Of a stretch of DNA of 64,000 nt, positions 1-47,329 are shown in pieces. This stretch comes from a virus (Duplodnaviria > Heunggongvirae > Uroviricota > Caudoviricetes): the IMG/VR virus record IMGVR_UViG_3300047159_000064; one strand, given 5' to 3'. The position numbers were made by a program, and so were the translations under genes. The notes under the pieces are model-generated. The model did no database searches. It was not told the DNA's origin and was given only the letters and a program-made list of their open reading frames with translations. Numbering within the stretch: position 1 is the first letter of the stretch; every line of letters starts with the position of its first letter.

Positions 1-356
1 AAAAACTGGCGTTCTGGCGTAGAATTGTCGCTGGCAGCTCAAGTGTCTACTTTCGTCAGCAGCTGCTTTACGGTCGTGACGTACTCATTGGCTTTGGCTT
101 TGACTATGGCAGGGTCTTCGCTTTCTATTTGGCCTGACAGCACTATGGTTTTGTCCAGCAGCGAATCGATGTTGTCTACGAGCTCAGATTTTTCGTCGGA
201 GCTCGTATTCGCGCTGTCGCTCAAAAACGACAAAAGCTCGCTCGACTGCCTTTGCAGCTGAGCGGCTATGGTAGCATAATCTATCGTCGGATCATCCTCA
301 TTGAGCATGAATCTCTCGCAGAGCGTGAATTTTCTATGCTGTTGCATGTCTGTCAT
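1..356 (-). CDS. Hypothetical protein, partial (runs off the window edge); in-frame TGA at 41-39 read as Trp
   Basis: ATG 356 directly follows the TAA of the upstream gene; the frame stays open past the TGA (KVDT*AASDNSTPERQF) to position 1. Confidence 0.6.
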
Positions 357-357
357 G

Positions 358-867
358 TTAATCGTCTCCATCATTATCGACGAGAAGCGTGTTGGTCTGA
401 TCGCTGAAATCCGTATGCAGGGCAGGTTCGTCGACGTCTTCGTATTCCGGCGCTATTTCGCAGGCTATCGACGCAGGATAAACCATTATCGTCTGCATGC
501 TTATCACCCTGAATACCCTTCCTTCGGCTTGGTCTAAGCCGCTTGGAACGATGAACAGCGCGCCGACCTGCAGCCCAGGCAGGTCATATGGGACGTGAAT
601 TATCGAAGACGTTTCTTGCAGTTCTGCGACCCAGCCCATTTTTTTCAGCGTTTTCTGATCTGGATGTTCCTGGAATATGCAGCCTACAACAACGCCTTTT
701 TTATAGTCGGCGTCTAAATCTCCATGCGAATCGTAAGTAGATTTGCTTAGAGGCTCTTTGTAAATGCAGTTTATGCCGATGAGCTTGGTCATCTGCTTGA
801 AGTATTTTCTGTGCAGCTTTATGTCTTGGTTGTACAATATGCCGTAGTCATTTGGCGAATCTGACAT
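358..867 (-). CDS. Putative neck/head-completion protein (T4 gp14-like)
   Basis: 169 aa ORF in the head module, preceded by the late motif at 948-956; call rests on size, position and weak resemblance. Confidence 0.45.
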   Translation of the reverse strand: MSDSPNDYGILYNQDIKLHRKYFKQMTKLIGINCIYKEPLSKSTYDSHGDLDADYKKGVVVGCIFQEHPDQKTLKKMGWVAELQETSSIIHVPYDLPGLQVGALFIVPSGLDQAEGRVFRVISMQTIMVYPASIACEIAPEYEDVDEPALHTDFSDQTNTLLVDNDGDD

Positions 868-947
868 TTATTTATACCTCCAATCCATCGCAGCTTGTCA
901 TATGAATTGCGCCGGCCCGTTTTTGCAGGTCGGCGCTGTTTAGCAAT

Positions 948-956
948 TAATTTAGC
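948..956 (-). promoter_or_regulatory. Candidate late promoter GCTAAATTA
   Basis: Exact copy, upstream of 867. Confidence 0.6.
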
Positions 957-4147: not shown

Positions 4148-4891
4148 TTAGTCTACGCAGTAGATCAGATTAGAATTAGCTCTCAGCACGTCTTCCAGGT
4201 CTTTGAGTTCCGTGGTTCCTTCTTCAAGCAGTTTGTCTCCGTCTTGCGCCCACAGCGCGCCAGATTGGACGAATCGCGTTCTTATTCTGCCAAGCGTTAT
4301 CTTAGTCAGCGCTTTGCTCATTTTTATCAGGACGTCGATTCAGTAATCGCTTTGTATGTCTTCTACCGATTTAAGTTTCGGTATGTACTTTATCGTTATG
4401 TATCCAGGCGACGTCATCGCGCTGTTTATGTACAGCTTTTTGTTGTGCCTGTCTTCTTCGAACGCCAGGTCCGTAGACAAGGTGTTCCTTATTTTTGACA
4501 GCGTCAGCCATGAGGCGTAATTCATCACGTAGTCGTTCAGATTGTACATCGTTCCGCCGTTGCTGAACATCATCCATTGCTGAGTGTAGAGGGGATCGGA
4601 CATGACGCTCGTCGTTCCGTTCGTCGTTTCGCCGACGCCGGCCGTTCTGTATATCTTGACGATCGAGCTCACGTTTTCGTCGAAGACGTTTTTTCCGTCT
4701 TTGTCTTTGGCCGAAAGATCTATGCAGGACGCGAACGGAATGGTCACCATCGTCGTTTCGTCCCAGAACCTATTTAGCTCTCTGAGAGCCCTGTTGACGA
4801 TTTGCACTATCGTTGAATCATCAATTTCGAGCTCAAGCACTTCCCCAGTTAGTTCGAGTTTTACCTCGTTAACTACTTCTTGCATTTTCAT
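4148..4891 (-). CDS. Putative neck protein (T4 gp13-like); TGA at 4342-4340 read as Trp
   Basis: Frame continues IQSDY*IDVLIKMSKALTKITLGRIRTRF...ALWAQDGDKLLEEG to TAA at 4150-4148; 247 aa. Confidence 0.65.
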
Positions 4892-5021: not shown

Positions 5022-5891
5022 TTACTCGTCTTTGTCCGTGCTTCAGTGCTGCCAGGACGGCGTTAGGCCGAACAGCAGCGAATACGGCAGCGCAGGCCAA
5101 TCTTTTTTATCTGATATTTTGCCGCAGTTGGTCTTTATGAGATTCAAGTCTATCTGAGTTGTGTGGCGGTCGTTCCATACGGCGCTGTCTGGCGAATCAA
5201 GCTTTATTTCGAACAGCGTTGACGGATGTTCTTCTTTGGTGATGAATATCGCGGTCTCTGCACCGTGGAAAGCGTTTCTTTTCTGCCTGTCGAAATCCTC
5301 TCTGAGGTCGGTCAGATACATCTCGATGGAGTTTCTGTCTTTGCATAGCTTGGCTTCTATCCTGCTCCCATCTGGCGCCGTAAAATCAGGCTGGCAGTCT
5401 TGCTCAGTCGCCATGCCGGAATGAAGGGTGTTATGCGAATTCTCGTCTAGTTTCAAGCCATATTTTTCCGCTACGGCGTATTCCATCCGCTTGGTGTTTA
5501 TGAATTGGACCAGACGCGTGAGCCATGTGGCGTATATGCTGCTGAATGGATCGACGCCTTTTTTGATGTACATACCGTCGATTATCTTGCAGACGCTGCC
5601 GAAATTGTCGAACCACCATTCGCTGTTGTGGAAATTCTCTTCTATCTCTGATATTTTTATGCTTGTCCGACTGCAATCCAGCTTAGACAGAATGTTCGTG
5701 CGCAGCCATTTGTCGTCTCTGACGAACTTGCTGTTTTTGTCGGCTTTAGCTTTGTTGTACTCAGGCGAGTGTCAGCCCTTCCAGCTGCTGTTGGTCCAGT
5801 TTTTGTGGATGTTCTCCTTCGAGAAGAAATCGGAGTTGTCTGTCTGAGCGGTGTGCTCAGGGGCGCTGTCGTCGTTGATGCAAAAATACAT
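5022..5891 (-). CDS. PD-(D/E)xK-type nuclease, possibly a free-standing homing endonuclease; two TGA=Trp (5774-5772, 5045-5043)
   Basis: QPDFTAPDGSRIEAK motif; ATG 5891 with SD GAAAGGA; 289 aa only if TGA is read through. Confidence 0.55.
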
Positions 5892-15350: not shown

Positions 15351-15351
15351 G

Positions 15352-18089: not shown

Positions 18090-18110
18090 TTGCTTTGTTT
18101 CCGTCGCATA

Positions 18111-18119
18111 TAATTTAGC
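18111..18119 (-). promoter_or_regulatory. Candidate late promoter GCTAAATTA
   Basis: Exact copy, 22 nt upstream of 18089. Confidence 0.65.
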
Positions 18120-18150
18120 AGAAGATGAGCGGCATATTTTTATTAAAAAT

Positions 18151-18179
18151 AAAAACGAGACGGCATTTGTCTCGTTTTT
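18151..18179 (-). terminator. Intrinsic terminator
   Basis: aaaaacgagac-ggcattt-gtctcgttttt hairpin. Confidence 0.7.
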
Positions 18180-18204
18180 GCGCATTAGCGTCTATATTTC
18201 AGCT

Positions 18205-26463: not shown

Positions 26464-26482
26464 AATGGTTATCTCCTTGCTG

Positions 26483-33021: not shown

Positions 33022-33038
33022 TTTGTGTTTTCTCCTTG

Positions 33039-33287: not shown

Positions 33288-33678
33288 CTTTGTGTATCTG
33301 GCTTCTGTCGATGTTGTACTGCCCCATTATAGGCAGCAGCTTCAGGTAGAGCGCCATGACCTTGCTCTTCTGCTTAGCTGACAGGCCGCTCAGCTTCGAT
33401 TCCGCCGTCGCCATGTCGTCGCCTTCGATATTGACGTATTGGTACAAGAGCAGCGCGTTCGAAACGATCACGAAGTCATCCGCCGTCGGAAACGTCACGG
33501 TCTTCCCTGCGAAATATGCCAGCAGCCTGGCCAGATTGCTGCCGTCTAGCAGATAGCACAGTTCGCTCAGCACGGCGTATTCCGGGACGTCCTGCACTTT
33601 GTACATAACGAACAGCATCAGCGAATAGACGTCGGACAGCTGCAGCGCGTCGAGGCTGTTTTTGACTTTATTCTTCAT
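33277..33678 (-). CDS. Hypothetical protein, possibly Mor/C-like transcription activator
   Basis: LLAYFAGKTVTFP resembles the Mor-family FGG..YxP segment; weak. Confidence 0.4.
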   Translation of the reverse strand: MKNKVKNSLDALQLSDVYSLMLFVMYKVQDVPEYAVLSELCYLLDGSNLARLLAYFAGKTVTFPTADDFVIVSNALLLYQYVNIEGDDMATAESKLSGLSAKQKSKVMALYLKLLPIMGQYNIDRSQIHKDDR

Positions 33679-34489
33679 CTTGGTTGGCCGATTCTCCCGC
33701 CGGGTTGGATATTATGTCATCCAGATACTCATCGGCTATGTCGGCCGATTTGTAGCAGTCCATGATGTCCTTCTTCATTTCCACGAAGAACTCCTTGAGC
33801 AGGACTCTGACGTAATTAGACATCGACTTAGGCAGCTTTCACAATATCATCGTTATCGCGCTGGCGTCGAGCTTTTTCTTGGTCTTTATCGCGCTGACGC
33901 AATTCAGCATCAGCGATATCTTCAGCCGCTTGTATTCTATCGAGTCTTTGCCGAACGGCGATTTTATCAGGACCCTGTCGAGCAGCTCGCCGCAGTTCTG
34001 GAACGACTCTTGGACGTTCTGCTGGAACGCCTCGTTGACGCCGAGCGTCTCCCTGGCGTCGTCTTTCAGCTTCTCGTTGTAGCTGAATGCGTCGAACTTC
34101 GTCGACACGAACTCCTCTGAGATGACCTCTCTGAAGCTTTCTCTCTGGTATTCTATCTTCATAGGATACAAGAGCGCCTTAGTGTAATTCAAGCTCGATT
34201 TTATGGGCCTTATTTTCTTGCCCTTTATCGTTTTGCCTTGGTTCTGCAGGTTTTTCCTCAGAGCGAAGAACAGCCTGTTCGCCGCGTAGAACGAATACGG
34301 ATCGTAGTCCTGGAAGTTAGAGAACATCCCTTTCTTTATCGCCAGCGCCTTGACGAGCAATCATAGGTAGTTGTATACCGTGTTCTCGACTTCTGGGTAT
34401 TCTCCTGGGTTCCTGAGCTTCTCCATGTTCTTGTCGATGTACATGCACAGCTCGGTATATTTTAGACCGCTAGGTTTTTTAAAAAGCAT
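33668..34489 (-). CDS. Conserved-looking helical protein, candidate T4 gp55-like late sigma factor; 2 TGA=Trp (34363-34361, 33841-33839); probable indel near 33695
   Basis: MLFKKPSGLKYTELCMYID...VYNYL*LLVKALAIKK...MIL*KLPKSMSNYV; next to the SbcCD (gp46/47-like) genes. Confidence 0.45.
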
Positions 34490-34551
34490 TATTTACCATG
34501 CCCTCCTTTGTTGCCTGATTCTTTCCGTATCTCTTGCGTATGTTTCATTTA

Positions 34552-36420
34552 TTATGCCGTTATCTCGCTTATGCCGTTCTCGTCTTTGACGACGTGCAGC
34601 TCCGAGTCTATCGGCAGCTCGAGCTCTTCCGCGTGATGCGAGACGATGAACACCGAATCTATGGAGTCGAGCTCGCTTTCGACCAGGCTCATGACCGCGT
34701 CGCAGCTTCGCTTGTCCAGGAAGTCCGTTATCTCGTCGAGCACCAGCATGTTTGAATCGGCGCCGAGGTAGAATATCAGCATGTTCCTTATGGCGAACTG
34801 CAGTATCAGATCCACGCGCTGCTTCTCGCCGCCAGACAGATTGTCGAACATCTTGCCGCAGTACGCGATGTCTAGATCGTTGTCGTCCAGCCTGACGTCA
34901 AGCTCGTCCGTGCCGAACACAGTTTTGCAGTACTCTTTGGCTTTCTTGTTGATGTACGCTATGACGTTCGACAGGAGATAGCCGCGGAAGTCGCGCTTTA
35001 TCAGCGTCTCCATCTTCTTGACCACCGCCAGATGCTCTTGCGTGTCAAGCTTGCCGTCTTCCGTCAGCTTTATCGCGCTGTCGAGCTTGGCGACCGAGTC
35101 TTTGAGCGACGCGGCGGCGTTTTCGACAGAAAGCTTGTTCTTGTCCCAATTCGCCTTGTCGAAGCATAATTTGTCAAGCCTGCGTTTTTCGGAGTCCATT
35201 TGGCTCGAAAAGCCGCTTTTTTTGAGTTTCAGCTCAGACGCCTTGCTTTTGTTGCCGGCCAGATGCCCGTTCAGCTCGCTGAGATCGGCGGCGAACGTCG
35301 CGTCGATCTCGTCGAGGTAGCTCTTATGCTCTTTGTTGACGGTCGCCTCTCGTTCGGCGAAAACGGGGAGCTGCTGCTGCCATTTGATCAGCTCAAGCTC
35401 TTGCTTGCTCGTGTCCGGCTTTATGACGCCGGCTATCTTCTGCCCGCAGACCGGGCAGACGTCCTTTATGCTCTTCAGCCTCGCTATCTCGTCTTTCAGC
35501 GCGGCTATCTTGTTTTCTATGCCGGATCTGTCGGCCTTGATGCCGGACATAACGCTGTTGTAGGCGATGAGCTCTTGCGCGCCTACCTTCGATTTCTCGG
35601 TCATTTTGCTCATCAAAGCGCTATTGGTCTTCTCTGTGTCAGCATCTAAAGCGTCGAGCTCGGCAGACGCGGAATTGAACCCTGCGGTAGCCGCGGATAG
35701 CGCTGAGTTGGCCTCGAGGATCTCCGCGTCGAAATCCGGCCTTTTCAGCGAGGCGAGCAGCTTATTGTCGGCGTCGAGCGTGGCTTGGAAGCCGTCTTTG
35801 CTCGTGCGGTTGACCAAAAGGCTGTCTTCGTATTCGCGGAGCTTGGAATTCAGCGCGTTCTCCCTCGAGGACACCCTGTTCTTTATGTCGTCTATCATGA
35901 AATCAGATTTAGTCAGCTTCTCGAGCAGCTCTTTTCTGCCGGACGGGCTGAACGACGAAAATTTGTTCGGCATGCCTTGGCCGATGATTATCGTCGACGC
36001 TATGAGGTCTTTGGTGAGATCCGGCAGCTGCTCGGCAAGCTTCTTCTCAGATTCGCGGATGCCTTTGCCCGAGACGTCCTCGCCGTTTTTTATTATCTTG
36101 AGATCCGTGTTAGGCGATATGAACCTCGTTATCTCGAACGAGTCAGAATCGTGCGAAAAAGACAAAGCCACGTAGGCTTCGTCGTCTTCCGCTGCCGCCA
36201 GGTTCTTCAGATTCGAATGAAGGCCGTTCACGGTCTCGCCGGTAAGGGCGAAGGATATGCCGTTCCAAATCTGCGATTTGCCGGCTCCGTTTGACAGCGC
36301 GTTGTCTTTCTTGCAGCGGTTGACGCCCGTCACCAGGCAGAAGCCTTTGTTCTGCAGGCCGACGTCGGCGTGGCCGTAGCTGCCGAAATTATGCAGCGTC
36401 ACTTTCTTAAATTGCAGCAT
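34552..36420 (-). CDS. sbcC: SbcC/Rad50-like SMC ATPase (gp46-like)
   Basis: SNGAGKS Walker A, CPVC zinc hook, LSGGEKQR signature, LVLDE Walker B. Confidence 0.9.
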   Translation of the reverse strand: MLQFKKVTLHNFGSYGHADVGLQNKGFCLVTGVNRCKKDNALSNGAGKSQIWNGISFALTGETVNGLHSNLKNLAAAEDDEAYVALSFSHDSDSFEITRFISPNTDLKIIKNGEDVSGKGIRESEKKLAEQLPDLTKDLIASTIIIGQGMPNKFSSFSPSGRKELLEKLTKSDFMIDDIKNRVSSRENALNSKLREYEDSLLVNRTSKDGFQATLDADNKLLASLKRPDFDAEILEANSALSAATAGFNSASAELDALDADTEKTNSALMSKMTEKSKVGAQELIAYNSVMSGIKADRSGIENKIAALKDEIARLKSIKDVCPVCGQKIAGVIKPDTSKQELELIKWQQQLPVFAEREATVNKEHKSYLDEIDATFAADLSELNGHLAGNKSKASELKLKKSGFSSQMDSEKRRLDKLCFDKANWDKNKLSVENAAASLKDSVAKLDSAIKLTEDGKLDTQEHLAVVKKMETLIKRDFRGYLLSNVIAYINKKAKEYCKTVFGTDELDVRLDDNDLDIAYCGKMFDNLSGGEKQRVDLILQFAIRNMLIFYLGADSNMLVLDEITDFLDKRSCDAVMSLVESELDSIDSVFIVSHHAEELELPIDSELHVVKDENGISEITA

Positions 36421-36823
36421 CTTTGCCCATCCAATCGCTCATGTTGAGGCAGACGAGCTGCCAGAAGCAGTTCCAATGGAACGCTTTCTCGGCGTTGTAC
36501 TTGCTCAGCACTTCGTCCTGCGTCCCCGGCACGATGCGCTCCACCATGCCGTTTTCGCCGACTCTGAAGTATTTCCTCTCGCAGTCGGCGTATTGCTCGT
36601 ACTCTGACAGCGTAGAGGCTATTATAGCTATTTTCTTGTTCTCGGCGCCGTCTTTCTCGATGGGCTCCGTCAGAATATAGTAATCGCGCATGAACTTTAT
36701 GTAGGTGACGAAATAGTCTATGGGGTTGTTGAGCTCGGCGACGTCGCGCTTCTGAAGCGCCCTGAGCTCTCTGTCGTAGCATTTGAAAAGCCTGCTGTAT
36801 TTCTTTTTGAATTCCTTATTCAT
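36407..36823 (-). CDS. Hypothetical protein
   Basis: 138 aa ORF between sbcD and sbcC. Confidence 0.6.
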   Translation of the reverse strand: MNKEFKKKYSRLFKCYDRELRALQKRDVAELNNPIDYFVTYIKFMRDYYILTEPIEKDGAENKKIAIIASTLSEYEQYADCERKYFRVGENGMVERIVPGTQDEVLSKYNAEKAFHWNCFWQLVCLNMSDWMGKDAAI

Positions 36824-36846
36824 ATTTAACGGCTCTTTACTCTATT

Positions 36847-36855
36847 ATTATACGA
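36847..36855 (-). promoter_or_regulatory. Candidate early/middle promoter TCGTATAAT
   Basis: Intergenic, upstream of 36823. Confidence 0.55.
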
Positions 36856-36881
36856 CAACGGCTTGGCAAAAGCCTTCTGCC

Positions 36882-37913
36882 CTACTTGCATATTTCCGCC
36901 AATTCCGATTCGAGCACTGCCGAGTTGTTTATCTTGGCGCGGCAGCACTCCACGAACTTGGCCAGATGATCCATCGTCAGCTCCGAGATGTCGCCTTCTT
37001 CTGCGGCTTGCCCTTGCTTTTCGGCTATCAGCCGTATCTCGACTATTTTGCCGGACGCCTGAAGCGCGGCGAGCTTGTCTTTCGCCGCCTGCATCAGCGA
37101 TTCCGCGCATTTGACCGAAACGACGGCGTTGTTTTTTATGCTGTCCAGTGCCGAAAGGCCGCTTTGGTCGGCTATCTCAATCTTATAGAAATTGAACGCC
37201 TCTGGGTTTTCGACGAACCTGCACTGCAGCGTGTCTGTGTCTATCAGCATCGCGCTGTGGCGGTATCTGAAGGCGTCTTCGCCGAAGTCCTTGCCTGTTA
37301 TGTTGCCTAGGTTTATCGCGTTGGTCGAAATCTGCTGGCCGTTATGAAGGTGCCCGTTGACGAACAGAGAGCACGAATTGCCTATGTCGTCAATGTCGAA
37401 TCCCGCCCTTGAGACTATGGGCCCCATTTGGATGCCTTTGACGTCGTTGTGCGAAAGAATCAGCCTAGGCTTGTCCGTCATGCCGCCGAAATACCGCGCC
37501 AGCGGCTTTCTGTCGCTCTCTATGATGTACGGCAGAAGGCAGATCTCTATGCCGCCCAGCTCGAGCGTCTTAGGCTCCGTAACTATGTCATTGTTCTCGG
37601 CGAACAGCGCGTTGACCGAATTGAATTCGAGGCTGCTCACCGACGAATCGTGGTTGCCGACCAGATAATAATGCTTGATGGCGGACCATTTCACCGAGGT
37701 CAGCGCCGTTATGGTCTCGCTGTCCAGATCCGGCTGATCGAAAAAGTCGCCCAAATTGAAAACGGCGTCGCACCCCTCTGATTCGGCGAGGCGCTCAGCC
37801 CAATTGAGCGTATTGACGCAATTCTCAAGCCTAAGCGAGTATTTTTTCCCGTATCCTCTTATTATGCTGGCGGCTCTGCACATGTGCAGATCCGTGTAAA
37901 TCAGTATTTTCAT
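36882..37913 (-). CDS. sbcD: SbcD/Mre11-like metallophosphoesterase nuclease (gp47-like)
   Basis: TDLH, LGDFFD, VGNHD, NGHLH. Confidence 0.9.
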   Translation of the reverse strand: MKILIYTDLHMCRAASIIRGYGKKYSLRLENCVNTLNWAERLAESEGCDAVFNLGDFFDQPDLDSETITALTSVKWSAIKHYYLVGNHDSSVSSLEFNSVNALFAENNDIVTEPKTLELGGIEICLLPYIIESDRKPLARYFGGMTDKPRLILSHNDVKGIQMGPIVSRAGFDIDDIGNSCSLFVNGHLHNGQQISTNAINLGNITGKDFGEDAFRYRHSAMLIDTDTLQCRFVENPEAFNFYKIEIADQSGLSALDSIKNNAVVSVKCAESLMQAAKDKLAALQASGKIVEIRLIAEKQGQAAEEGDISELTMDHLAKFVECCRAKINNSAVLESELAEICK

Positions 37914-37943
37914 GATGTTGTTTCCTAATCGGCGGCGGATTAT

Positions 37944-38243
37944 CTAGTCTTGCGGCTTATCTTCGCTATGCGCCGTTTTGTGATTGGCATTAGTGCGGAA
38001 ATAAGCCTCGTCTATGAGTTTTATGAAATCTTTGTAGCCGTCGAAATCCACGATGTAGTTCTGCAAATTCTCGCCGTTGCTTCTGATGTACGGCTTCTCG
38101 TTGTAGTAGTCCCACAGGACTTTGGCGACTTCTACTCTGGTTCCGTCGGCCAAAACGAAGTTTATTGCCAAGCCGTCTATGACGTACTCCGATACGTCGA
38201 CGAGCTCGAACGCGTTGGCCGTCGCTATGATCGGCCCTGTCAT
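37944..38243 (-). CDS. Hypothetical protein
   Basis: 99 aa ORF. Confidence 0.55.
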   Translation of the reverse strand: MTGPIIATANAFELVDVSEYVIDGLAINFVLADGTRVEVAKVLWDYYNEKPYIRSNGENLQNYIVDFDGYKDFIKLIDEAYFRTNANHKTAHSEDKPQD

Positions 38244-38833
38244 TATTCTGCGGCTCCGTTCTCGTTTTCGAAGCAGGTCGCCGCCATGTCGGCCATTCTG
38301 GCGAGCGTCACAAGCGGATAGCTCTTAAGGATATCGTGCAGATCGTTCGTGTAGTTGTCGAGCGGCCGCGACTGAACGATGGCCTCTATCTGCTCGTCGG
38401 TGAACTGGAAGAAATGATTGACGGTCATGTAGGAGCTGAACCCGAGATCGCCGTACGTCGGTCTGTCTTCTTTTAGCCGATAGGCCGGCACGGACTCCCA
38501 TTGCCCGGTTTCGTCGTTTTTGACGTTCTTCTGGAATCCTTCGTACATCTCTGCGCGGTAGATGTCGCGGAACAGCGCGACCTTTATGATGTCTTCCTGC
38601 GAGTATCTGCCTGGGAAGTACGCGTTGGCCAAAGAGCCGAGCTCATAGTACGTGTCGAGCGCGTACTGGCACAATCCGCCTGGATATGCCTTGAAATACT
38701 GCGGGCTCGCCGGCTTTTCGAAATAATCGACTGAGTCGAGGTATTTCGAGAAAGTGGTCAAATCGACTCCGAGCTTGCTCAGAAGCTCGAGGTATTTCGT
38801 CTTGTTAGCCAATAATTGTTCTTGCGTAAGCAT
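38243..38833 (-). CDS. HD-domain-like protein with degenerate metal ligands
   Basis: AYPGGLCQYAL and ALFRDIY in place of the usual GGLxxH and LLHDIGK; final ADM retained. Confidence 0.6.
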   Translation of the reverse strand: MLTQEQLLANKTKYLELLSKLGVDLTTFSKYLDSVDYFEKPASPQYFKAYPGGLCQYALDTYYELGSLANAYFPGRYSQEDIIKVALFRDIYRAEMYEGFQKNVKNDETGQWESVPAYRLKEDRPTYGDLGFSSYMTVNHFFQFTDEQIEAIVQSRPLDNYTNDLHDILKSYPLVTLARMADMAATCFENENGAAE

Positions 38834-38844
38834 GTGTTTGCCTC

Positions 38845-39657
38845 CTATTTGCCTTCCGTTAGATAAGCCAGCATCTTGGCTCCTTTAGCCGACGTGTAGC
38901 CTGATGCGCAGTAGCCCACGGCGAACAGCTTAGGCACGAACGACGTCATGCAGTAATCGTTTATCTGTGCAGCGCCGCCGGCGTCGACGTTGAACAGCTG
39001 ATGCGCCGATGTCACGAGGTTCGGCCTGCCGCCCAAAAAGACTAGCATGACCGTGCATCTGATTTTGTCGTAGGTGTCGAATTTCACGACCGTCTCGTTG
39101 GAATCGCCCTCAACGAAGCAGTCTGTCACGCATGAATTAGGCAGATAGACTATATTGTCTGCGGCTTTCATCTTCGCCGCCAGATCCGCGTCGCAGCCAG
39201 GCTGCATGGCTTTGTCGCACAAATAGACGTATCTCAGTTTCTTGCTGAGCGCCAAAGCGGCTTCGACGGCGTCTTCCCCATGGCCTACTATCAGCGCTTG
39301 GCTGTATTTGTTCAGCCTCGGAAGGGAATCGACGTCGTAATAGACGCCTTTGACTTCGCGGTTGCCGACGACGAGCTCGTTAGGCGTCTGGCCTGTGGCC
39401 ATGACGACGGTCTCGCTTATCGCCAGCGAGCCGTCTTCCAGCGTCACGGCTATCAAGCCTCTGTTATAGGCTATGAACGTCGCTTTCTGATTGACGCATT
39501 CGACGCCTTCCAGCGGCTTTTTCTTCAGGCGGCTGAAATCTTCGCTTATGAGCGCTACCGTCTTGAATCTTGGCGATTTGGCGAGCTTTCGCGCTGCCTG
39601 CACGCCTTCTTTGCTGGCGCCTACGATTATGGCGTCGTACATCTTGTTCTGTGGCAT
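38845..39657 (-). CDS. Thioredoxin-reductase-like FAD/NAD(P) oxidoreductase fold, degenerate
   Basis: YDAIIVGA, VVMATG, LIVGHGEDAVEAA, PKLFAVG; no CxxC. Confidence 0.6.
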   Translation of the reverse strand: MPQNKMYDAIIVGASKEGVQAARKLAKSPRFKTVALISEDFSRLKKKPLEGVECVNQKATFIAYNRGLIAVTLEDGSLAISETVVMATGQTPNELVVGNREVKGVYYDVDSLPRLNKYSQALIVGHGEDAVEAALALSKKLRYVYLCDKAMQPGCDADLAAKMKAADNIVYLPNSCVTDCFVEGDSNETVVKFDTYDKIRCTVMLVFLGGRPNLVTSAHQLFNVDAGGAAQINDYCMTSFVPKLFAVGYCASGYTSAKGAKMLAYLTEGK

Positions 39658-39675
39658 ATTTGCAACCTTCTTTTT

Positions 39676-39684
39676 ATTATACGG
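39676..39684 (-). promoter_or_regulatory. Candidate early/middle promoter CCGTATAAT
   Basis: Just after the bS21 stop, upstream of 39657. Confidence 0.55.
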
Positions 39685-39686
39685 CA

Positions 39687-39878
39687 TTACCGGCTTCTTC
39701 GGCTTTTGCGGCGCTTGGCCGCGGCGAGCTTAGATTTCGCTTTCCTGGCTAGCGACTTCTTGACGAAGAACTGCCGCTTTCTGCATTCGTCCAGCACGCC
39801 TGAATAGGCTACGGCACGCTTGAATCTCGCCAGCGTGGCGTCTATCGCCTCGTTTTCGAACGGCTCTATCTTTATCAT
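39687..39878 (-). CDS. rpsU: Ribosomal protein bS21
   Basis: ENEAIDATLARFKR...GVLDECRKRQFFVKKS plus a basic tail; 63 aa. Confidence 0.85.
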   Translation of the reverse strand: MIKIEPFENEAIDATLARFKRAVAYSGVLDECRKRQFFVKKSLARKAKSKLAAAKRRKSRRSR

Positions 39879-39879
39879 G

Positions 39880-40830
39880 CTATTCCACCAAACGCTTGCC
39901 TTTCTGCTGCTTCATCATCGTCTGCAGTATTTTCTGGTCGCTGCCGATGTTGGCGTCTCCGCCCCATTTGAGCAGCGACTCTTTGTATCTTGAATCGCCC
40001 TTGTGGTCCCACAGGCTGAAATAAGGGCAGCATGCGGTAGGGCCGGCCTTGTCGAGGTTTGCCTTGTTTTTCTCTAGCATCGGATTGTACTCGCACCAAT
40101 GGCACAGCGGCGTCGGATTCGGCTCCCAGTCGCCGCTCTCAATCCCGCCGAACAGCTTTTCGAGCTTCTTCATGCCGCGCGTCATGTAGCCTGGCGATCC
40201 AGCCGGCTGGTTGCCGTCGCAGAACGGAAGGTCGTATTCGCACGACACCTGGTCTTTGTCGCATTTGTACAGGTCTTCGGCCGCCATCGTGTAGAACACG
40301 AACTGAAGCGGCGTCGTGAGCTCGTCGGCCTCTGCCGGAACGGGCCAGGTCTTTATGTCTTGGATCAGATAGCGATTCGTCGCTTTGTCGTGGATGACGC
40401 GGTCTATGAACCCCTTGAACACGTATTTGTCGTTGTACGCGACTTTGAAATCCTGCTCTGTGCCGACTATCTCGTACGTAGGATGGGCTTTCATGAATCT
40501 CTCAAGCCTGTAGATCTTGTCGTCGAGATATTCGTACATCTTGTCTTTGTACGTGCGATCCGATTTGTCTTTCTCTGAGAAATCCGCAGGGTATCTGCTT
40601 TCGATTTCCGCCATCTTGACGATGATGTTGTTCTTGAGGCTCGGATAGTCTATCGCTTCGCCGGCCCTGATGAAATTGGCTATGCTCTCTTCCGTCTTGT
40701 GGATCAGCGTGCCGAATTCAGTGGCGACGCTGCCTGAGAACAGGTAATGCCCGTCGAGGTACTTGAGCTTGAATTTGAATTTGCATTGCTCATACGTGTC
40801 TATTTTGGAATAAGAAAAATTCTCGCTCAT
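39880..40830 (-). CDS. PD-(D/E)xK RecB/Cas4-like exonuclease
   Basis: FSYSKIDTYEQC, GFIDRV, IQDIKT, QFVFY, LCHWCEY...C Fe-S-type cysteines. Confidence 0.8.
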   Translation of the reverse strand: MSENFSYSKIDTYEQCKFKFKLKYLDGHYLFSGSVATEFGTLIHKTEESIANFIRAGEAIDYPSLKNNIIVKMAEIESRYPADFSEKDKSDRTYKDKMYEYLDDKIYRLERFMKAHPTYEIVGTEQDFKVAYNDKYVFKGFIDRVIHDKATNRYLIQDIKTWPVPAEADELTTPLQFVFYTMAAEDLYKCDKDQVSCEYDLPFCDGNQPAGSPGYMTRGMKKLEKLFGGIESGDWEPNPTPLCHWCEYNPMLEKNKANLDKAGPTACCPYFSLWDHKGDSRYKESLLKWGGDANIGSDQKILQTMMKQQKGKRLVE

Positions 40831-40841
40831 TGCTTTCTCCT

Positions 40842-41747
40842 TTATTGTGCTACGTGAATAAGAATATAATCGAGCAGCCTGTCTTTCGTCATGTCGAGCT
40901 CTGACGACTTGAGCCTGAGGTCTATGCCTGACAGGAACTCTATGTTCTTGAACAGCCTGTCTTGCTGATAGCCGTTGTACAGATACTTCTTGTACGCGAA
41001 ATACTGCTTCTCGGAAACGCCTATCTCTTCGGCGGTCGCTCCGCTGTTCAGCTTTATGAGCGCGATGTTCTTCAGCGTCTTCAGCATGACGTTAGCCAAA
41101 GCTATCGGATCTATGTCGCAATCAGCCTCGTGCTGCATGAAGCCGTAGATCTCTGCTCTGTCGCCTTTTATCACGCTGTCTGCCAGCTTGAACAGCTGCG
41201 CTTCGTAGAAATTGGCTCCTGGCTCGAACCTGACGGCCTCAAAGACCTCTTTTTGCTCGCTTTCGTCGAACAGCGCCACCTTGTCGAGCTCGTTCTTTAT
41301 CTGATAGATGTCGCCGGCCGTCGCTTCGTAAAGCCAGTCTATCTGGCTCGCCTCGAGGCCTGGACACAATACTGCCATGTAATCTTTTATCTGCCATTCC
41401 TGGAGCTTCGGGAAAACGACGACGCTGTCTCCGAGCGCGTCGGACAGCTTCTGGTCTATCTTGTCGCAGACCACGACGACGTCCTCGAACATCGAATAGT
41501 CGGCCGCGACTTCAGAGAACACGTCGGTTTTTAGGACATAAAGCATCCCGCTGTCTTCCTGCAGCGCGAAAGCGGAATCTTCCGAATCGTGCACGCTCGA
41601 TATCGGGCAGGCCGTCTTGTTTCTGACGCGGCAGATCTCGTCTAGGTACTGATTCGCCAGAAAATAATCTCCGTCGCAGACGAAAACCATGAATCTGGAA
41701 TCGACCGATTTGCTTTCAAGCCTCGATTTAAGCTCTGTCAGCTTCAT
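40842..41747 (-). CDS. holA: Clamp-loader delta subunit-like (HolA)
   Basis: GDIYQIKNELDKV, LFKLADSV; in an operon with dnaX and a holB-like gene. Confidence 0.7.
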   Translation of the reverse strand: MKLTELKSRLESKSVDSRFMVFVCDGDYFLANQYLDEICRVRNKTACPISSVHDSEDSAFALQEDSGMLYVLKTDVFSEVAADYSMFEDVVVVCDKIDQKLSDALGDSVVVFPKLQEWQIKDYMAVLCPGLEASQIDWLYEATAGDIYQIKNELDKVALFDESEQKEVFEAVRFEPGANFYEAQLFKLADSVIKGDRAEIYGFMQHEADCDIDPIALANVMLKTLKNIALIKLNSGATAEEIGVSEKQYFAYKKYLYNGYQQDRLFKNIEFLSGIDLRLKSSELDMTKDRLLDYILIHVAQ

Positions 41748-42546
41748 GGTTCGCCTCCTTCCACATCGACGTGACGAAACTCAGCATGAAATTATCCTTG
41801 GATATTGATTTGTTGGCTTTGTCTTTTTTGGCTTTGTTGACCAATTCGTATATCGCCAAATCGGCGTCCGCGCCACCGTTCTTGTAGGCTTTGAAAGCCG
41901 CCAGCTCTAGCGCGTTGAAGAAAAGATCGAAGTCGAATCGGTCGTTTTCGTCTCCGCAGTTGACTTTGGTGACAAGCTTCAGCGCGTTGGCCCAGCTGGT
42001 CTTGCCGATGTTGGCGACTATGGAATCGCACAGCGAAAGCAAGCCTTCGACGTTCTGCGATTCGGCTGCCTTCAGCCGGCCTGGGGTATTGCATACCGCT
42101 AAGAAATCCGGCGTCGCTTTGCTCGGATCCGGCATCAGCGATTTGAGCTGATCGTCGGAGTATCGCTCGAAGAACAGCTTCAGGCATCTGTTCGAGATCG
42201 TCGGCAGCACTCCTACCTCAGAATCGGCCAAAACCACGACGAAGGCGCATTTCGCGGGCTCTTCGATGAATTTAAGAAACTGATTCTGCTGCTTCTCCGA
42301 GAATTTCGAGATCTCTATGACGTACATCGTCGGAGTCGGGCTCTGCGAATACGATATGAGATCGTCATGGGTCATCTCGTCGCTGATGACGACGTAAGCC
42401 AAACCTAAGCGATCCGCAAGCGCCTTAGACAGAAGATGCTTGCCGCATCCAGGCTCGCCTATCAGCATGAGCGTCTTCGGCATTGTGTCTATGCGATACG
42501 AGTCCAGCGCGCCCCTCAATTTTTCTTGTCCTACTATCGCTGCCAT
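41728..42546 (-). CDS. holB: Clamp-loader delta-prime subunit-like (HolB)
   Basis: IVGQ, GEPGCGK, QQNQFLKFIEEP, LPTISNRC. Confidence 0.75.
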   Translation of the reverse strand: MAAIVGQEKLRGALDSYRIDTMPKTLMLIGEPGCGKHLLSKALADRLGLAYVVISDEMTHDDLISYSQSPTPTMYVIEISKFSEKQQNQFLKFIEEPAKCAFVVVLADSEVGVLPTISNRCLKLFFERYSDDQLKSLMPDPSKATPDFLAVCNTPGRLKAAESQNVEGLLSLCDSIVANIGKTSWANALKLVTKVNCGDENDRFDFDLFFNALELAAFKAYKNGGADADLAIYELVNKAKKDKANKSISKDNFMLSFVTSMWKEANHEADRA

Positions 42547-42548
42547 GG

Positions 42549-43574
42549 CTATCCTCTGCACGCTTTGAGCATGTAGGCTTCGATCGTCGATTTGTAAGAG
42601 GCGTCGTATTTGATTTCGGTCTTGAGCTTGAGGATGTGGTCAAGGAACCCGTTAAGGAATTTTCTGTCTATCTGGGCAGTGTAGCTGACGCTGATGCTAT
42701 TATCGGCTGAATTCTCGAGATGCGCCGGAAGATTGGTCATTCCGATGTTCTTGAATATCGCGTATTTAGTCAGGTCGAGCAAGAAATCGAAATACGCGCT
42801 AATGAACTGGCGCAGATCGTCACCGTTGGAATAAAGGCGTTCGATGATGTTCAGCGTCTCCGCCTCATTGCCTTCGTACACGTAATTGGTCAGCCGCAGC
42901 ATCGTCTCGGCGTCCATGTCGCCGATGATGCGCTTTGTGTTGCTCAGGCTGAGATCATGCGAATAATCGGCGCACTGATCCAGCAGAGTGATGGCGTCGC
43001 GCAGGCAGCCCTGGCTGACGTTGCTTATCATCTCGCAGGCGTCTTCGTAGTTCGTGAAGCCTTCCTGCTTGCAGATGTACTCAAGCCTGGCTTTTATGCC
43101 GGCGTTGGAGATTTTCGTGATGTTGTAGCGCTGAAGGCGGTTGAGGATCGTGTCCGGGATCTTGTTTGGCTCCGTGGTGCAGAAAATGTAGATGGTGTAC
43201 CCTGATTCCTCTTCGAGCTCTTTCAGGATGGCCTGCCAGCCTACCGTCGTGATGGCGTGGCATTCGTCGATGATGAATATCTTGTATTCGCCTACTAGGC
43301 TTCTTTCGTGCGCCGAAGAGATTATGGCGCGGATCTGGTCGACGCCGTTGTTGCTCGCCGCGTCGATCTCTATCGGATCGCCGACGCCTTTGTTTATCTC
43401 ATTGGCGAAGATGCGGGCGATCGTCGTCTTGCCGGCCCCGGTGTCTCCGGCGAAAAGATAGGCGTGCTTGAATTCGCGCTTTTCCAGCACTTTCGTCAGG
43501 ATCTTTATGGTCAGCCCTTGCTCGACGACGTCAGAAAAAGCCTTAGGTCTGTACTTATTTGCTAATGATTCCAT
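42549..43574 (-). CDS. dnaX: Clamp-loader ATPase gamma/tau N-terminal domains (DnaX)
   Basis: LANKYRP, GDTGAGKTT, EIDAASNNGVD, IIDECH, CLRDAITLLDQ. Confidence 0.92.
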   Translation of the reverse strand: MESLANKYRPKAFSDVVEQGLTIKILTKVLEKREFKHAYLFAGDTGAGKTTIARIFANEINKGVGDPIEIDAASNNGVDQIRAIISSAHERSLVGEYKIFIIDECHAITTVGWQAILKELEEESGYTIYIFCTTEPNKIPDTILNRLQRYNITKISNAGIKARLEYICKQEGFTNYEDACEMISNVSQGCLRDAITLLDQCADYSHDLSLSNTKRIIGDMDAETMLRLTNYVYEGNEAETLNIIERLYSNGDDLRQFISAYFDFLLDLTKYAIFKNIGMTNLPAHLENSADNSISVSYTAQIDRKFLNGFLDHILKLKTEIKYDASYKSTIEAYMLKACRG

Positions 43575-43596
43575 TATATCTCCTCGAATCCATGTT

Positions 43597-43605
43597 ATTA
43601 TACGA
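43597..43605 (-). promoter_or_regulatory. Candidate early/middle promoter TCGTATAAT
   Basis: Intergenic, upstream of dnaX. Confidence 0.55.
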
Positions 43606-43608
43606 TTG

Positions 43609-43983
43609 CTATTGCTGGCTTATCGTCGAAATCTGAGTTATCTCGTCCATAGACAGCCAGCCGGACCACATATTGGCGGTATCGGCCTGCCTGTCGTAAT
43701 CGTACTCAAGGCAGTCGAAATAGACCATCTTGCCCATCGTCTTGGACACGCATGCCTTCAGGTATTTGCTTTTCGGGAACCCGCCGGAATTCCAATTGAC
43801 CGCTGTCACAGAATTGGGGTTGTTCAGCACCTCTTGCGACACGGAGATGAGATATGTTTTACCTATGTCGTACCTCGGCTTAGAATATTTTGGCACGAGC
43901 ACCGAGTAGACGCCTGGCTTAAGCCCGCTGAGATCGGCGAAAGAGCAGTTCTGAAGCTGCTCTTGCACGTATTTGCGTATCAT
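43609..43983 (-). CDS. Hypothetical protein
   Basis: 124 aa ORF. Confidence 0.6.
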   Translation of the reverse strand: MIRKYVQEQLQNCSFADLSGLKPGVYSVLVPKYSKPRYDIGKTYLISVSQEVLNNPNSVTAVNWNSGGFPKSKYLKACVSKTMGKMVYFDCLEYDYDRQADTANMWSGWLSMDEITQISTISQQ

Positions 43984-43985
43984 TT

Positions 43986-44375
43986 TTAGCGAAGCTCTTT
44001 TCTGGCGTCGAAGGCTTCTATGGCCTTTGCGTCGCTGTCGGCTTCGAATTCTACGGCCGCGAGATACTGCATGTCGCCCAAAGCTTCCGGAATATAGCAG
44101 TGATAGGCGCGTTTCTTGCCTTTTAGCACCGCGTCGCCATCGTCTTCAGTGCTGATGAGCGAGTATCCGTCGTCAGAGAACTGATAGACGTGAGATTTTC
44201 CTTTTTCTGAGAAATAAGGATCCGCCGTGACGAAGCGCGTGCCTTTGTAGCTCATGCTGCCGAACACAGGGGCCGTTTTGCCTTCGTACGCGATCAAAGC
44301 CCTGCGGACGCGCACGGCCTCTTCGTCGTCGACGAGATCGTTCTTGACGTTTATCGCCACCATCGAGTATTTCAT
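43986..44375 (-). CDS. Hypothetical protein
   Basis: 129 aa ORF with SD GGGAG. Confidence 0.6.
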   Translation of the reverse strand: MKYSMVAINVKNDLVDDEEAVRVRRALIAYEGKTAPVFGSMSYKGTRFVTADPYFSEKGKSHVYQFSDDGYSLISTEDDGDAVLKGKKRAYHCYIPEALGDMQYLAAVEFEADSDAKAIEAFDARKELR

Positions 44376-44432
44376 GCTGATTTCTCCCTGTTTATATTTT
44401 ATATATAATACGGCATAAAAGAAAGAAGAACC

Positions 44433-44819
44433 TTATTCAGGCTCTTCTTTGCTGAGTTTCACGAACTCTTGCAGCGCCTTGAAAAGCGCTTCGTCTATGA
44501 TATAATAGTTATCTCCGCCTGGGCCGAAACTGAACGCCAGCGCCCAGTTCTGCCTGCCGTCGAACACCATCTCATGCCTGAGCTTGTCGATCCATTCTTT
44601 CTTGATCGACATCGAATCGCAGTCTGACGTCTTCGTCTTGCACTCGATGGCCCAATCTTTCGTCAGCACGTCCGATTTTCCGCCGAAGTCAGTCGCGCCT
44701 GAATTAGGCGTCGTTCTTCCGCCTACAGCCTTAGCGACGGCTTTCTCTTGGCGCGAGCTGAAGTAGCGAGTAGGCTTCTGCTCGCCTTCTTTTACCCTAG
44801 TCTTTATCCCCGCCGCCAT
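44433..44819 (-). CDS. Holliday-junction-resolvase-like PD-(D/E)xK nuclease
   Basis: QEK..AK, SGA, SDV, IECKT, SIKKEW. Confidence 0.7.
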   Translation of the reverse strand: MAAGIKTRVKEGEQKPTRYFSSRQEKAVAKAVGGRTTPNSGATDFGGKSDVLTKDWAIECKTKTSDCDSMSIKKEWIDKLRHEMVFDGRQNWALAFSFGPGGDNYYIIDEALFKALQEFVKLSKEEPE

Positions 44820-46083
44820 TTTTAGGCTCCTCTTCGGCAATCGGGCCGCAAGAAGCCTCAGGCTCAGGATCGCCGCCATCTGGGTCTTCTTCTTCAGGCG
44901 CTGAAGCGCCTTTCGAATCAGGCTTAGGCTTAGAGCGATCGAACTGATGCTCCACCGCGTGCTCTTGATCGTCGATTTCGGCCGCCGTTCTGTCGTCGAG
45001 CAGCGAGCCGTATGAATCGTCTGACGCCGAAATGTATTTGTTCAGCATCGCGAGGTATTGGTTCTGGAATTCGACGTGAGTCATGATGTAATCGACCAAA
45101 TCGGCTTTCTTGCCTTGCAGAGGCTTGCCGTCGTCACCTTCGAACAATTCGCCTGTCTCCAGGTTGACGAGCTGATAAGTGACGTTGTTGACGCGTTTTA
45201 TGAAATCGAAGCCGATCGCTATCTCGAGCAAATCGTGCATCCAATCCAAACCGGTCGCGTAGCGGTAGGTTATGAAGCCGCCGCCGCGGTTGCACGGCGC
45301 GGTCTTGTTCTTCATGATCTTGAACAGAAGCCTGAAGCCGTCTGCGCCTTCGCCGTTTTCTTTGCCGCAGGCGTCCATGTCGTCCAATTTTGTGAACTTG
45401 CGCGTGCCGAATCTGACTGATACAGACGAATAATACTGAGGCGCGCCGCCGCAAGGCTCTTTGTAGATCGGAAGCCCGGTGAACGTCGTGCCGACCTGCC
45501 TGACCTGATTGATGAGTATGAGGATGTTGTTCTTCTCGGCGACCATCGACTGCATGATCGACAGGAACGGATAAAGCTTTTTGGCTATAGTCCCTCTCAT
45601 GCCCGCGTCTTTGGTCAGATCGTTCTCGAGGACGATCGCCGGCATCATCGCCGGAAGCGAATCGAGCACGATGGCGCCCGTGTCTTCGCCTTTCTGCAGC
45701 TCGACGATCAAATCGCAGATCTGCTCGCCTGAAAGGCCTACAGGATTGACGTAGAACAGCTTGCTGAGATCCAAGCCGTTCATCCTGGCCTGGAATTTAA
45801 GATCGAGCGTGTGCTCGACGTCCACGAACACGCAGGTCTGCTTCGGGAACATGCGCTGATACGCGGCCAATTCGCAGCATGCGCCGGTCGTCTTTCCGGA
45901 GTGCTGCAGTCCCGAGTAAACGGCGATTCTGCCCAAAGGCAGGCCGCCGAAAAGCGGGTAATCCATGCCTAACGCGCCGCACGCCAAACGCTCGTAATAA
46001 GGCAGAATGTTGCTTTTGATGATGAGTTTGTCCGTTTTGTATTCTTTGTTGAGACGGGACACTATTTCGCTAATTGATGACAT
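44797..46083 (-). CDS. recA: RecA/UvsX recombinase
   Basis: GGLPLGRI, GLQHSGKTT, VDVEHTLD, IVLDS, INQVR, KNKTAP. Confidence 0.92.
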   Translation of the reverse strand: MSSISEIVSRLNKEYKTDKLIIKSNILPYYERLACGALGMDYPLFGGLPLGRIAVYSGLQHSGKTTGACCELAAYQRMFPKQTCVFVDVEHTLDLKFQARMNGLDLSKLFYVNPVGLSGEQICDLIVELQKGEDTGAIVLDSLPAMMPAIVLENDLTKDAGMRGTIAKKLYPFLSIMQSMVAEKNNILILINQVRQVGTTFTGLPIYKEPCGGAPQYYSSVSVRFGTRKFTKLDDMDACGKENGEGADGFRLLFKIMKNKTAPCNRGGGFITYRYATGLDWMHDLLEIAIGFDFIKRVNNVTYQLVNLETGELFEGDDGKPLQGKKADLVDYIMTHVEFQNQYLAMLNKYISASDDSYGSLLDDRTAAEIDDQEHAVEHQFDRSKPKPDSKGASAPEEEDPDGGDPEPEASCGPIAEEEPKNGGGDKD

Positions 46084-46100
46084 TTGTTCTTCTCTCCGGC

Positions 46101-46304
46101 TTATTGCGCCTTATTGACGTCTTCCGCCAGGTATTCGGCCAAGTATTGCTTGCCTTCTTTGGCGGACGGCGCAGAAACGTAATTGATCAGGAACATCCTG
46201 ATGAGCGCCGAGACGGTTATCTCGTTGTCCGCGGCCTTAGCCTTGACCTTATCGAGAAGGTCTTTGGACAATTTCACCGAAATCAAAGTCTGTTCTTTCT
46301 TCAT
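46101..46304 (-). CDS. Ribbon-helix-helix DNA-binding protein
   Basis: LISVKLSKDLLDKVKAKAADNEITVSALIRMFL. Confidence 0.7.
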   Translation of the reverse strand: MKKEQTLISVKLSKDLLDKVKAKAADNEITVSALIRMFLINYVSAPSAKEGKQYLAEYLAEDVNKAQ

Positions 46305-46316
46305 TTTTGCCTCCGG

Positions 46317-46838
46317 CTATTCCGCTGTCGGCGCCGGGCTGTCCACCTGGCCGCTTCCGGCCGACATAGACGTGTATTTGAGATCTTGCATGCGCGACAT
46401 CAGAATCGACGAGATGGCCGCGACCAAGCGATGCAGCTGGTCTACTTTGTTCTTGAGCAGGTTAGCCATATAAGAATAGAGCGTGTCGGATACGGTCTCT
46501 GAGGCCGTGGCGACCAACGCCAGTTTGTCTTTGACGGCCGCGGAGCCGTCGGTGCCGTTGAAATTGACGGCGAACGCCTCTTCGTGCAAAGCGTCTGCCA
46601 ATTCCGCTTTCAGGATGGACTTCTCTTTGATTTCGCTGATCTCGAACGCCTTCAGCTGAAGCCTGAGAATGTAATCTCTGAGCTGGTCGATAGACAGCGA
46701 GTTTATGTGCGCGTTGAGCGCGTCGACGAGCTCGTTGACCGGGTTAAGCACTGGATCGAGGATGCCGTTCGCGATCTCGACGAGATCGTGGTAGTTCATC
46801 TCCACTCTGTTTAAAGCGTCTTCTAACTTCTTATCCAT
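46317..46838 (-). CDS. Hypothetical coiled-coil protein
   Basis: 173 aa ORF. Confidence 0.6.
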   Translation of the reverse strand: MDKKLEDALNRVEMNYHDLVEIANGILDPVLNPVNELVDALNAHINSLSIDQLRDYILRLQLKAFEISEIKEKSILKAELADALHEEAFAVNFNGTDGSAAVKDKLALVATASETVSDTLYSYMANLLKNKVDQLHRLVAAISSILMSRMQDLKYTSMSAGSGQVDSPAPTAE

Positions 46839-47329
46839 TATTGCTCCTTAGCCGCCGGTTTGGCGTAATCGAGAAGGCATGAATAATCTGACTCCATGAA
46901 AACTCTTTTTTTCTCCGACGGTATTTCTACGATATTATACGACTTATCCTGCAGGGCCTTAAGCCCGACGGATTTCTCTCCGGCCAGCGTCATTCTCTCC
47001 ATCTCTTCGATAGGCACCCAGAACACCTTGTCTTTCTCAGACAGCCAGACAAGCACGCCTGGATAGACGCCTGTTATGCCTTTGTAAGCCAGAAGCCTGT
47101 CGTATTGGCTTATGGCCGAGAAAGGTATCGACGCGCCTAAATGCTCTTTGCATTCCATCAAGAACAGCTTGCCTGAGACGTAGCATACGAAATCGCAGGG
47201 GTTCATCGACGTCTGCTTGAATCCAGTCATCTGATCGGCCAGGCGCAGGATGAAGCTGTCTGGGAACGTCGTCTTTCAGTTTAGCCTGAACTGCGTCTCG
47301 AATTTTTTGCCTAAGCTTGCTTTAGACAT
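46838..47329 (-). CDS. recU: RecU-like Holliday junction resolvase; TGA at 47278-47276 read as Trp
   Basis: MSKASLGKKFETQFRLN*KTTFPDSF..., PCDF, MECK, SQYDRL; ATG 47329 lies 4 nt after the dnaN stop. Confidence 0.75.

Follow-up and report, generated by a model that had tools for sequence, protein, structure and literature searches.

The DNA analyzed here is a 64,000-nucleotide stretch (hereafter, the window) of the Caudoviricetes virus record IMGVR_UViG_3300047159_000064, in which the codon TGA recurs inside long open reading frames (ORFs). Comparison with homologous genes shows that these TGAs are read through and stand at tryptophan (Trp) positions. We consider it highly probable that the phage decodes UGA as Trp, the table-4 reading, at at least 13 internal codons of the window, with a host that would use the standard code and a phage tRNA(UCA) as the presumed decoder. 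Recoding of TGA to Trp in phages is already published and is real here; what is unusual is the combination of ~50% GC, a low dose of TGA, and a partition among gene classes that is conserved over a 20-point difference in GC.

In-frame TGA codons and gene stops

A first-pass annotation had listed 14 in-frame TGAs on the minus strand, and a minus-strand TGA was found to begin at all 14 coordinates when each was checked in the window, with matching peptide contexts (sites are named below by the first base of the codon). If stops are restricted to TAA and TAG, 57–527 codons separate the TGA from the next stop at 12 of the 14 sites, and at site 41 the frame reaches the window edge. The annotation had placed every site inside a continuous gene, which stands for 13 sites across 11 genes, each within a long minus-strand open frame. 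Site 5045 is instead near-terminal, with a TAA seven codons on. Alignments of relatives cross the TGA sites without a stop, and the conserved genes are single ORFs in those relatives. Table 11, by contrast, fragments 11 window genes, including TerL, the head-tail adaptor, the AAA ATPase, and the resolvase.

Across 62 confident genes (19,024 codons), we counted 17 TGA and 129 TGG codons in frame and neither TAA nor TAG, against 494 and 299 TGAs in the off-frames of the same genes. TGA therefore makes up ~12% of Trp codons, Trp itself being rare (~0.8% of codons). All 66 genes whose stops were checked end in TAA (41) or TAG (25), in agreement with the earlier annotation, and none depends on TGA as its sole stop. 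Possible TGA stops number at most four genes, every one backed by a TAA or TAG within seven codons. In three standard-code relatives, 6–7 of ~42 homologous genes end in TGA, a rate at which finding no more than four TGA stops in 66 genes has a binomial P of 0.014. Further in-frame TGAs, beyond the 14 listed, stand at 23239, 23233, 22975, 22972, 27226, and 58031. All window genes lie on the minus strand at a GC of 0.46–0.54, so the description of the phage as GC-balanced was correct. The plus strand has an AT skew of −0.10 to −0.37 over the whole window, which makes the coding strand much richer in A than in T.

Residues at the TGA columns

We read each site in the style of Codetta, from the codon or residue that homologues carry in the TGA column. 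The comparison included four long IMG/VR contigs (G001–G004, 220–233 kb) from 28 loci found with an alignment of the head-tail adaptor family. The standard code suits three of them (G001–G003), which have 37–38% GC and 13–31 tRNAs, Trp(CCA) among them. The fourth, G004 (IMGVR_UViG_3300033463_000007; 232 kb, 30.6% GC, ~49% protein identity to the window), is heavily recoded: its ORFs of at least 900 nt cover 0.63 of the genome once TGA is sense, up from 0.28. A 9.6-kb contig from ENA, L081, represents a strain 95.8% identical to the window.

The head-tail adaptor gave the clearest column. It has ~1,800 homologues, of which the best 120 align over the full length at 63–73% identity, and site 4342 falls in an invariant S-D-Y-W motif with Trp in 119 of 119. 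Among IMG/VR loci, this column holds TGG in 26 and TGA in two; G001–G003 have TGG, and strain L081 keeps TGA. In TerL, site 15771 is TGG at 15 IMG/VR loci and TGA at one, and site 16935 reads Tyr, Tyr, and Trp in G001–G003, with six TGG and nine Tyr codons in a wider sample. Site 19410 aligns with Trp in 23 of 36 homologues, Tyr in seven, and other residues in six.

For the gene at 5022..5891, a word-based search returned only its own table-11 fragment, and an exhaustive HMMER search added ten relatives. Of the five homologues that align well at site 5774, four have Trp and one Phe. There is no start codon from this TGA to 5573, and a codon-position tally of strain differences upstream of it involves very small numbers. 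The RecU-like protein, which found no match in the PDB, carries the only internal TGA of the replication module (47278), and its G004 homologue contains three TGAs and no TGG. Site 28267 shows read-through only, because the alignments of relatives begin upstream of the TGA; it lies outside the PDB alignments of the topoisomerase C-part, which begin after it.

In sum, Trp dominates at nine sites and an aromatic mix occupies two, with one column uninformative and one terminal (Table 1). Glycine or cysteine was seen at none of the 12 readable columns, which speaks against both code 25 and selenocysteine. A search of the window against Rfam at the gathering score returned nothing, although no search was aimed at SECIS hairpins. 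The earlier choice of Trp over Gly is thus borne out by Trp or aromatic columns, and its site-by-site reading holds except at 5045, where homologues end, and at the unconserved 28267.

Table 1. TGA codons, the replication module, and promoter-like motifs of the window
Feature	Coordinates	Strand	Gene and position	Homologues or remarks
TGA	39..41	−	Gene 3..374, leaves window	TGG in 95.8%-identical strain L081, there one 287-aa ORF
TGA	4340..4342	−	Head-tail adaptor 4148..4891 (PF26809, phrog_211), residue 184	Trp 119/119
TGA	5772..5774	−	Gene 5022..5891, residue 40	Motif W-x-G-[W]-H-S
TGA	15769..15771	−	TerL N-part 15352..17145, residue 459	TGG G001–G003, TGA G004
TGA	16933..16935	−	TerL N-part, residue 71	Aromatic column
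TGA	17541..17543	−	Gene 17295..18185, residue 215	TGG G001–G003 and 11 IMG/VR loci, TGA G004
TGA	19408..19410	−	Nucleotidyltransferase-like gene 18205..19620, residue 71	TGG in G001, sole aligning relative of G001–G003
TGA	24490..24492	−	Gene 23902..25020, residue 177	TGG G001–G003, TGA G004
TGA	26020..26022	−	AAA ATPase 25039..26514, residue 165, directly after Walker A	TGG G001–G003, TGA G004
TGA	28265..28267	−	Topoisomerase IA C-part 27707..28330, residue 22	Unconserved linker, Leu/Val in relatives
TGA	33839..33841	−	Gene 33668..34489, residue 217	TGG G001–G003, TGA G004
TGA	34361..34363	−	Gene 33668..34489, residue 43	TGG G001–G003, TTT G004
TGA	47276..47278	−	RecU-like resolvase 46838..47329, residue 18	Tyr/Trp/Phe G001–G003, TGA G004
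TGA	5043..5045	−	Gene 5022..5891, 7 codons before TAA	Homologue ends; TGA and downstream stop kept in L081
TGATGA	22970..22975	−	Gene 22952..23887, 5–6 codons before TAA	Near-terminal class
TGA	27224..27226	−	Gene 27203..27601, 7 codons before TAG	Overlaps next gene's ATG as ATGA
TGA	58029..58031	−	Gene 58008..58343, 7 codons before TAA	No homologues found
TGA-ATC-TGA	23231..23239	−	Inside acidic/basic low-complexity gene 22952..23887	
Replication, recombination, and nucleotide-metabolism module, T4-type	34552..64000	−		2 TGA, 62 TGG
GCTAAATTA	956, 4937, 6025, 9835, 9951, 18119, 20810, 27653, 58365	−	Ahead of virion genes and others that carry TGA	
CGTATAAT(A)	21825, 30893, 36854, 39683, 43604, 44412, 46941, 48522, 51976, 53008, 56444	−		

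Distribution of sense TGA over gene classes

The window falls into three blocks. Virion and packaging genes (adaptor, gp23-type capsid, prohead protease, portal, TerL) occupy 1–17 kb, and a mixed block with the nucleotidyltransferase, AAA ATPase, topoisomerase IA, and peptide deformylase genes occupies 17–34.5 kb. The remainder is the replication module, with SbcCD, clamp loader, UvsX, resolvase, clamp, split family-B polymerase, SSB, primase, helicase, and loader genes, along with folate and NAD enzymes. The ratio of TGA to TGG is 15/67 in the first 34.5 kb compared to 2/62 in the remainder (Fisher P = 0.004), and the capsid, protease, and portal genes contain no TGA.

The core gene set of T4 is recognizable here, with PF07068 (Gp23) on the capsid homologue and matches to PHROG families. 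The label “T4-like” therefore holds loosely, through the capsid, portal, protease, and replication genes, as all of these matches are distant. When 20 kb of the window was compared with GenBank phages by megablast, only a 48-nt match to Leptolyngbya phage Lbo-JY46 was returned. The AAA protein found no match in GenBank phages by tblastn, and a first IMG/VR scan with the same protein was also empty. A 38-mer of the window had no match among IMG/VR or JGI metagenome contigs.

G004 repeats the pattern. It shares the T4-like gene set and the split-intein layout of TerL, and TGA occurs in the same genes and is spared from the same replication genes: all eight genes with TGA in the window have TGA in G004, compared to nine of 26 others (P = 0.003), and the G004 homologues of the replication module use TGG almost exclusively. 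Its TGAs align with window Trp (23), Tyr (8), and TGA (7) codons. Unlike in the window, TGA is about as frequent as TGG among the G004 codons aligned to window proteins, GC is 20 points lower, and no opal tRNA was detected. We also considered whether individual TGA sites were inherited in common with G004, as 7 of 7 were shared (P = 0.002). However, within those genes TGA occupies 10 of 13 Trp columns in G004, and this gene-level bias accounts for the sharing, leaving no evidence of inherited sites.

Two promoter-like motifs follow the same split between virion or mixed blocks and the replication module. The first, GCTAAATTA, has nine copies on the coding strand and none on the opposite strand; eight fall between genes, and eight map below 28 kb. 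All four relatives have it at 23–39 copies per genome, again with strand bias. We regard it as a candidate late promoter for this family of phages that differs from TATAAATA of T4. The T4 late promoter itself was rejected, since its single copy in the window matches chance expectation. The second motif, CGTATAAT(A), resembles a sigma-70 −10 box, and 10 of its 11 strong copies lie at 30–57 kb. These boxes sit 20–60 nt upstream of replication-module genes and are candidate early or middle promoters.

Proposed decoding and timing of gene expression

Under the reading we favor, the host would have a standard code, and the phage would supply a tRNA with anticodon UCA for the host tryptophanyl-tRNA synthetase (TrpRS) to charge. 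Once expressed, this tRNA would outcompete release factor 2 (RF2). The replication genes could then be translated from the start of infection, and the TGA-bearing genes would follow later, after the tRNA had accumulated. This scenario follows the late-gene model of Borges et al., who described code-4 phages with suppressor tRNAs and a late-gene bias (10.1101/2021.08.26.457843).

It is possible, if doubtful, that selection maintains TGA = Trp for timing or gating, and that the recoding is not a leftover of AT-driven drift. Such selection is suggested by two phages that have ~49% protein identity and lie 20 GC points apart, yet agree both in the genes that carry TGA and in the replication genes that avoid it.

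Several observations weigh against our overall reading. The 64-kb window contains no tRNA, release factor, or TrpRS gene, and all support comes from DNA sequence. The column at 28267 is unconserved and so gives no information on the residue. A GC of ~50% is at odds with the published low-GC route to recoding. The timing classes follow solely from gene function and the two promoter-like motifs, and a simple “late genes only” rule is not clean, given that a TGA is present in the RecU-like gene yet absent from the capsid, portal, and protease genes.

In the decoder search, no credible opal tRNA emerged from the recoded G004, either with ARAGORN at relaxed thresholds or with two cloverleaf scans of our own. 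In G001 (IMGVR_UViG_3300023371_000065), the tRNA array includes an odd 89-nt tRNA-like gene (131666–131754, minus strand) with a long variable arm and an 8-nt anticodon loop, which ARAGORN reads as “tcac” (SeC|Val?).

An alternative is that the host itself reads TGA as Trp and that the phage merely follows, with no phage-driven switch and no timing role. The lack of a decoder in the window and of a credible opal tRNA in G004 fits this view, as does the avoidance of TGA as a stop in every gene class, the replication module included. We nevertheless judge it unlikely, since it leaves unexplained why the replication genes avoid sense TGA (2/64 compared to 15/82) and TGA makes up such a small share of Trp codons here. 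Moreover, known TGA = Trp bacteria are mostly AT-rich. Phages of recoded hosts are also reported to carry the recoded codon in ~90% of their genes (10.1101/2021.08.26.457843), which counts further against a code-4 host.

Near-terminal TGAs

Four genes have TGA 5–7 codons ahead of their TAA or TAG (5045, 22972/22975, 27226, and 58031), whereas an even spread of sense TGAs would yield ~0.5. A second TAA or TAG within seven codons is found in only 23% of genes. At site 5045, most full-length homologues end within ~2 residues of the column, and this TGA is probably a stop, whether former or still in use. The near-terminal TGAs are best read as former stops that persist only where a close back-up stop shortens the read-through tail. 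By contrast, the TGAs at 23239 and 23233 are probably sense codons, because the homologue of their gene (22952..23887) abuts the next gene in relatives; under table 11, the window would have a ~300-nt geneless gap at this gene.

These sites raise the possibility of a dual meaning: certain genes, or the early stage of infection, would still use TGA as a stop, with Trp as its reading in other genes or at later times, and the near-terminal TGAs would be working stops. Their excess over expectation, the homologue ends at the 5045 column, and the ATGA stop-start overlap at 27226 all favor it, but the sequence fits a working stop and a tolerated short read-through equally well. A dual meaning would also refine the decoding of UGA as Trp rather than replace it, and as a separate explanation we regard it as very unlikely.

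Strain variation and independent assemblies

L081 keeps TGA at 4342, 5774, and 5045, has TGG at 41 where the window has TGA, and has TGA at 4510 where the window has TGG. Because the two codons are exchanged in both directions between strains, they behave as synonymous. At least ten separate studies of wastewater or bioreactor sludge have DNA runs that contain the phage, and small shares of the window sequence are present in RNA runs. We compared contigs of four of those studies with window positions 15300–34500. Contigs with zero or one difference, none at a TGA, span 15771, 16935, 17543, 24492, 26022, 33841, and 34363. The X2 contig over 15771 has its single difference elsewhere, and the same run confirms 16935 and 17543; 24492 and 26022 are intact in contigs of runs X2 and X6, and contigs of runs X2 and X4 cover 33841 and 34363 with no differences.

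Since independent assemblies of four studies keep the TGAs, they are not errors. That they arose through sequencing or assembly faults, or are edited from UGA to UGG in RNA, seems extremely unlikely. The window does contain frame breaks, in the topoisomerase, DHFR, and nicotinamidase-like genes, that could suggest faulty assembly. However, random G-to-A errors in TGG would produce TAG as often as TGA, and in-frame TAG is absent; L081, too, keeps three TGAs and swaps two sites. The bases after TGA vary and show no editing motif, in line with the earlier remark that variable flanks argue against a motif-specific sequencing error.

Strains differ most in the low-complexity gene, where 22949–23370 is a hot spot of variation with many small indels and replacements of 66–196 nt. 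The listed indel sizes total 12 nt in each strain group.

Split genes and frame breaks

Several window genes are interrupted in other ways. TerL lies in pieces across 13551–17145. Its N-part has ~280 residues that are absent from G001–G003 and closes with an intein N-terminal splicing domain, and the ORF two bases after it opens with an intein C-terminal block (...VSHN|C). The ~235 nt at 14966–15200 hold five TGAs and a TAA in the frame of the TerL C-part. The overall layout of TerL is also seen in G004. A group I intron in TerL is unconfirmed, as Rfam at E values up to 1 over 14800–15400 was empty. Within this region, the 48 nt at 15048–15095 match a site that has no annotation, next to a LAGLIDADG endonuclease gene of Leptolyngbya phage Lbo-JY46. 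Another protein-splicing element is a 306-amino-acid ORF between the protease and portal genes (10031–10951), with a Hint/intein-type domain at residues 140–283.

Topoisomerase IA (27707–29618) is one ORF in all four relatives but here two in different frames (28419..29618 and 27707..28330). Other assemblies have a 1-nt deletion at 28467, and both alleles occur in public runs. The deletion would lengthen the N-part by ~25 residues into the frame of the C-part, although the lengthened N-part still meets a TAA or TAG four codons ahead of the C-part ATG. Family-B DNA polymerase (48526–51916) consists of two adjacent ORFs (49745..51916 and 48526..49728) that correspond to consecutive parts of phrog_17.

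Two frame breaks fall within 61339–62765. The conserved C-terminus of the nicotinamidase-like gene, EVMKSCQISVY, is shifted to another frame near 62270, and the DHFR gene (61802..62197) goes on in the frame of 61339..61899 near 61815. A long table-11 ORF ending at TGA 61991 was rejected as a TGA-terminated gene, being a by-product of the break in the nicotinamidase-like gene.

Genuinely split genes, such as those with inteins, might suggest that TGA is a true stop in split or dead genes, but this reading has virtually no chance of being correct, and neither do Gly (code 25), Cys, or selenocysteine, given that relatives have single ORFs over each site with Trp in the column, neither Gly nor Cys appears at any column, essential virion genes would be hit, and the frames stay open so far past the TGA.

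Relation to known recoded systems

The closest parallels are the Jade, Sapphire, and Agate clades of gut code-4 phages, compared here by code and gene features (10.1101/2021.08.26.457843). As in the window, these phages have Trp columns filled by in-frame TGA, close relatives in the same clade that keep the standard code, a recoded codon spared from DNA-replication genes, and depleted TGA stops. Their genomes measure roughly 130–230 kb in the same study. By contrast, they are gut phages of low GC, whereas the present phage comes from wastewater and bioreactor-sludge runs, has ~50% GC, and uses TGA for a small minority of its Trp codons. Low GC, a proposed precursor state rather than a strict criterion, is not found in the window (0.46–0.54) but is found in its relatives (0.27–0.40), so it was fair of the first-pass annotation to call recoded genomes usually AT-rich.

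Mycoplasma and Spiroplasma (NCBI table 4) likewise read UGA as Trp beside UGG. There, however, the code is cellular and genome-wide and UGA is the main Trp codon, whereas here it is minor, restricted by gene class, and viral. In code 25 of Gracilibacteria, Absconditabacteria, and their phages, TGA is also sense but encodes Gly, compared to the Trp or aromatic columns found here.

Replacing table 11 with table 4 raises the coding density of the window by only 2.3%, below the 10% gain threshold of one density-based screen (PMC13037316). Density-based screens would therefore file this phage as standard code. If selection does maintain the recoding, a 50%-GC lineage would be keeping a small functional dose of TGA together with fossil TGA stops that have a TAA or TAG nearby, and light recoding of this kind, missed by density-based screens, could be far more common than catalogued. 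A code-4 phage of 50% GC whose relatives are all AT-rich is a misfit for a simple “low GC first” route, and the recoding of the same genes at 31% and 50% GC offers a natural comparison for whether recoding is regulatory.

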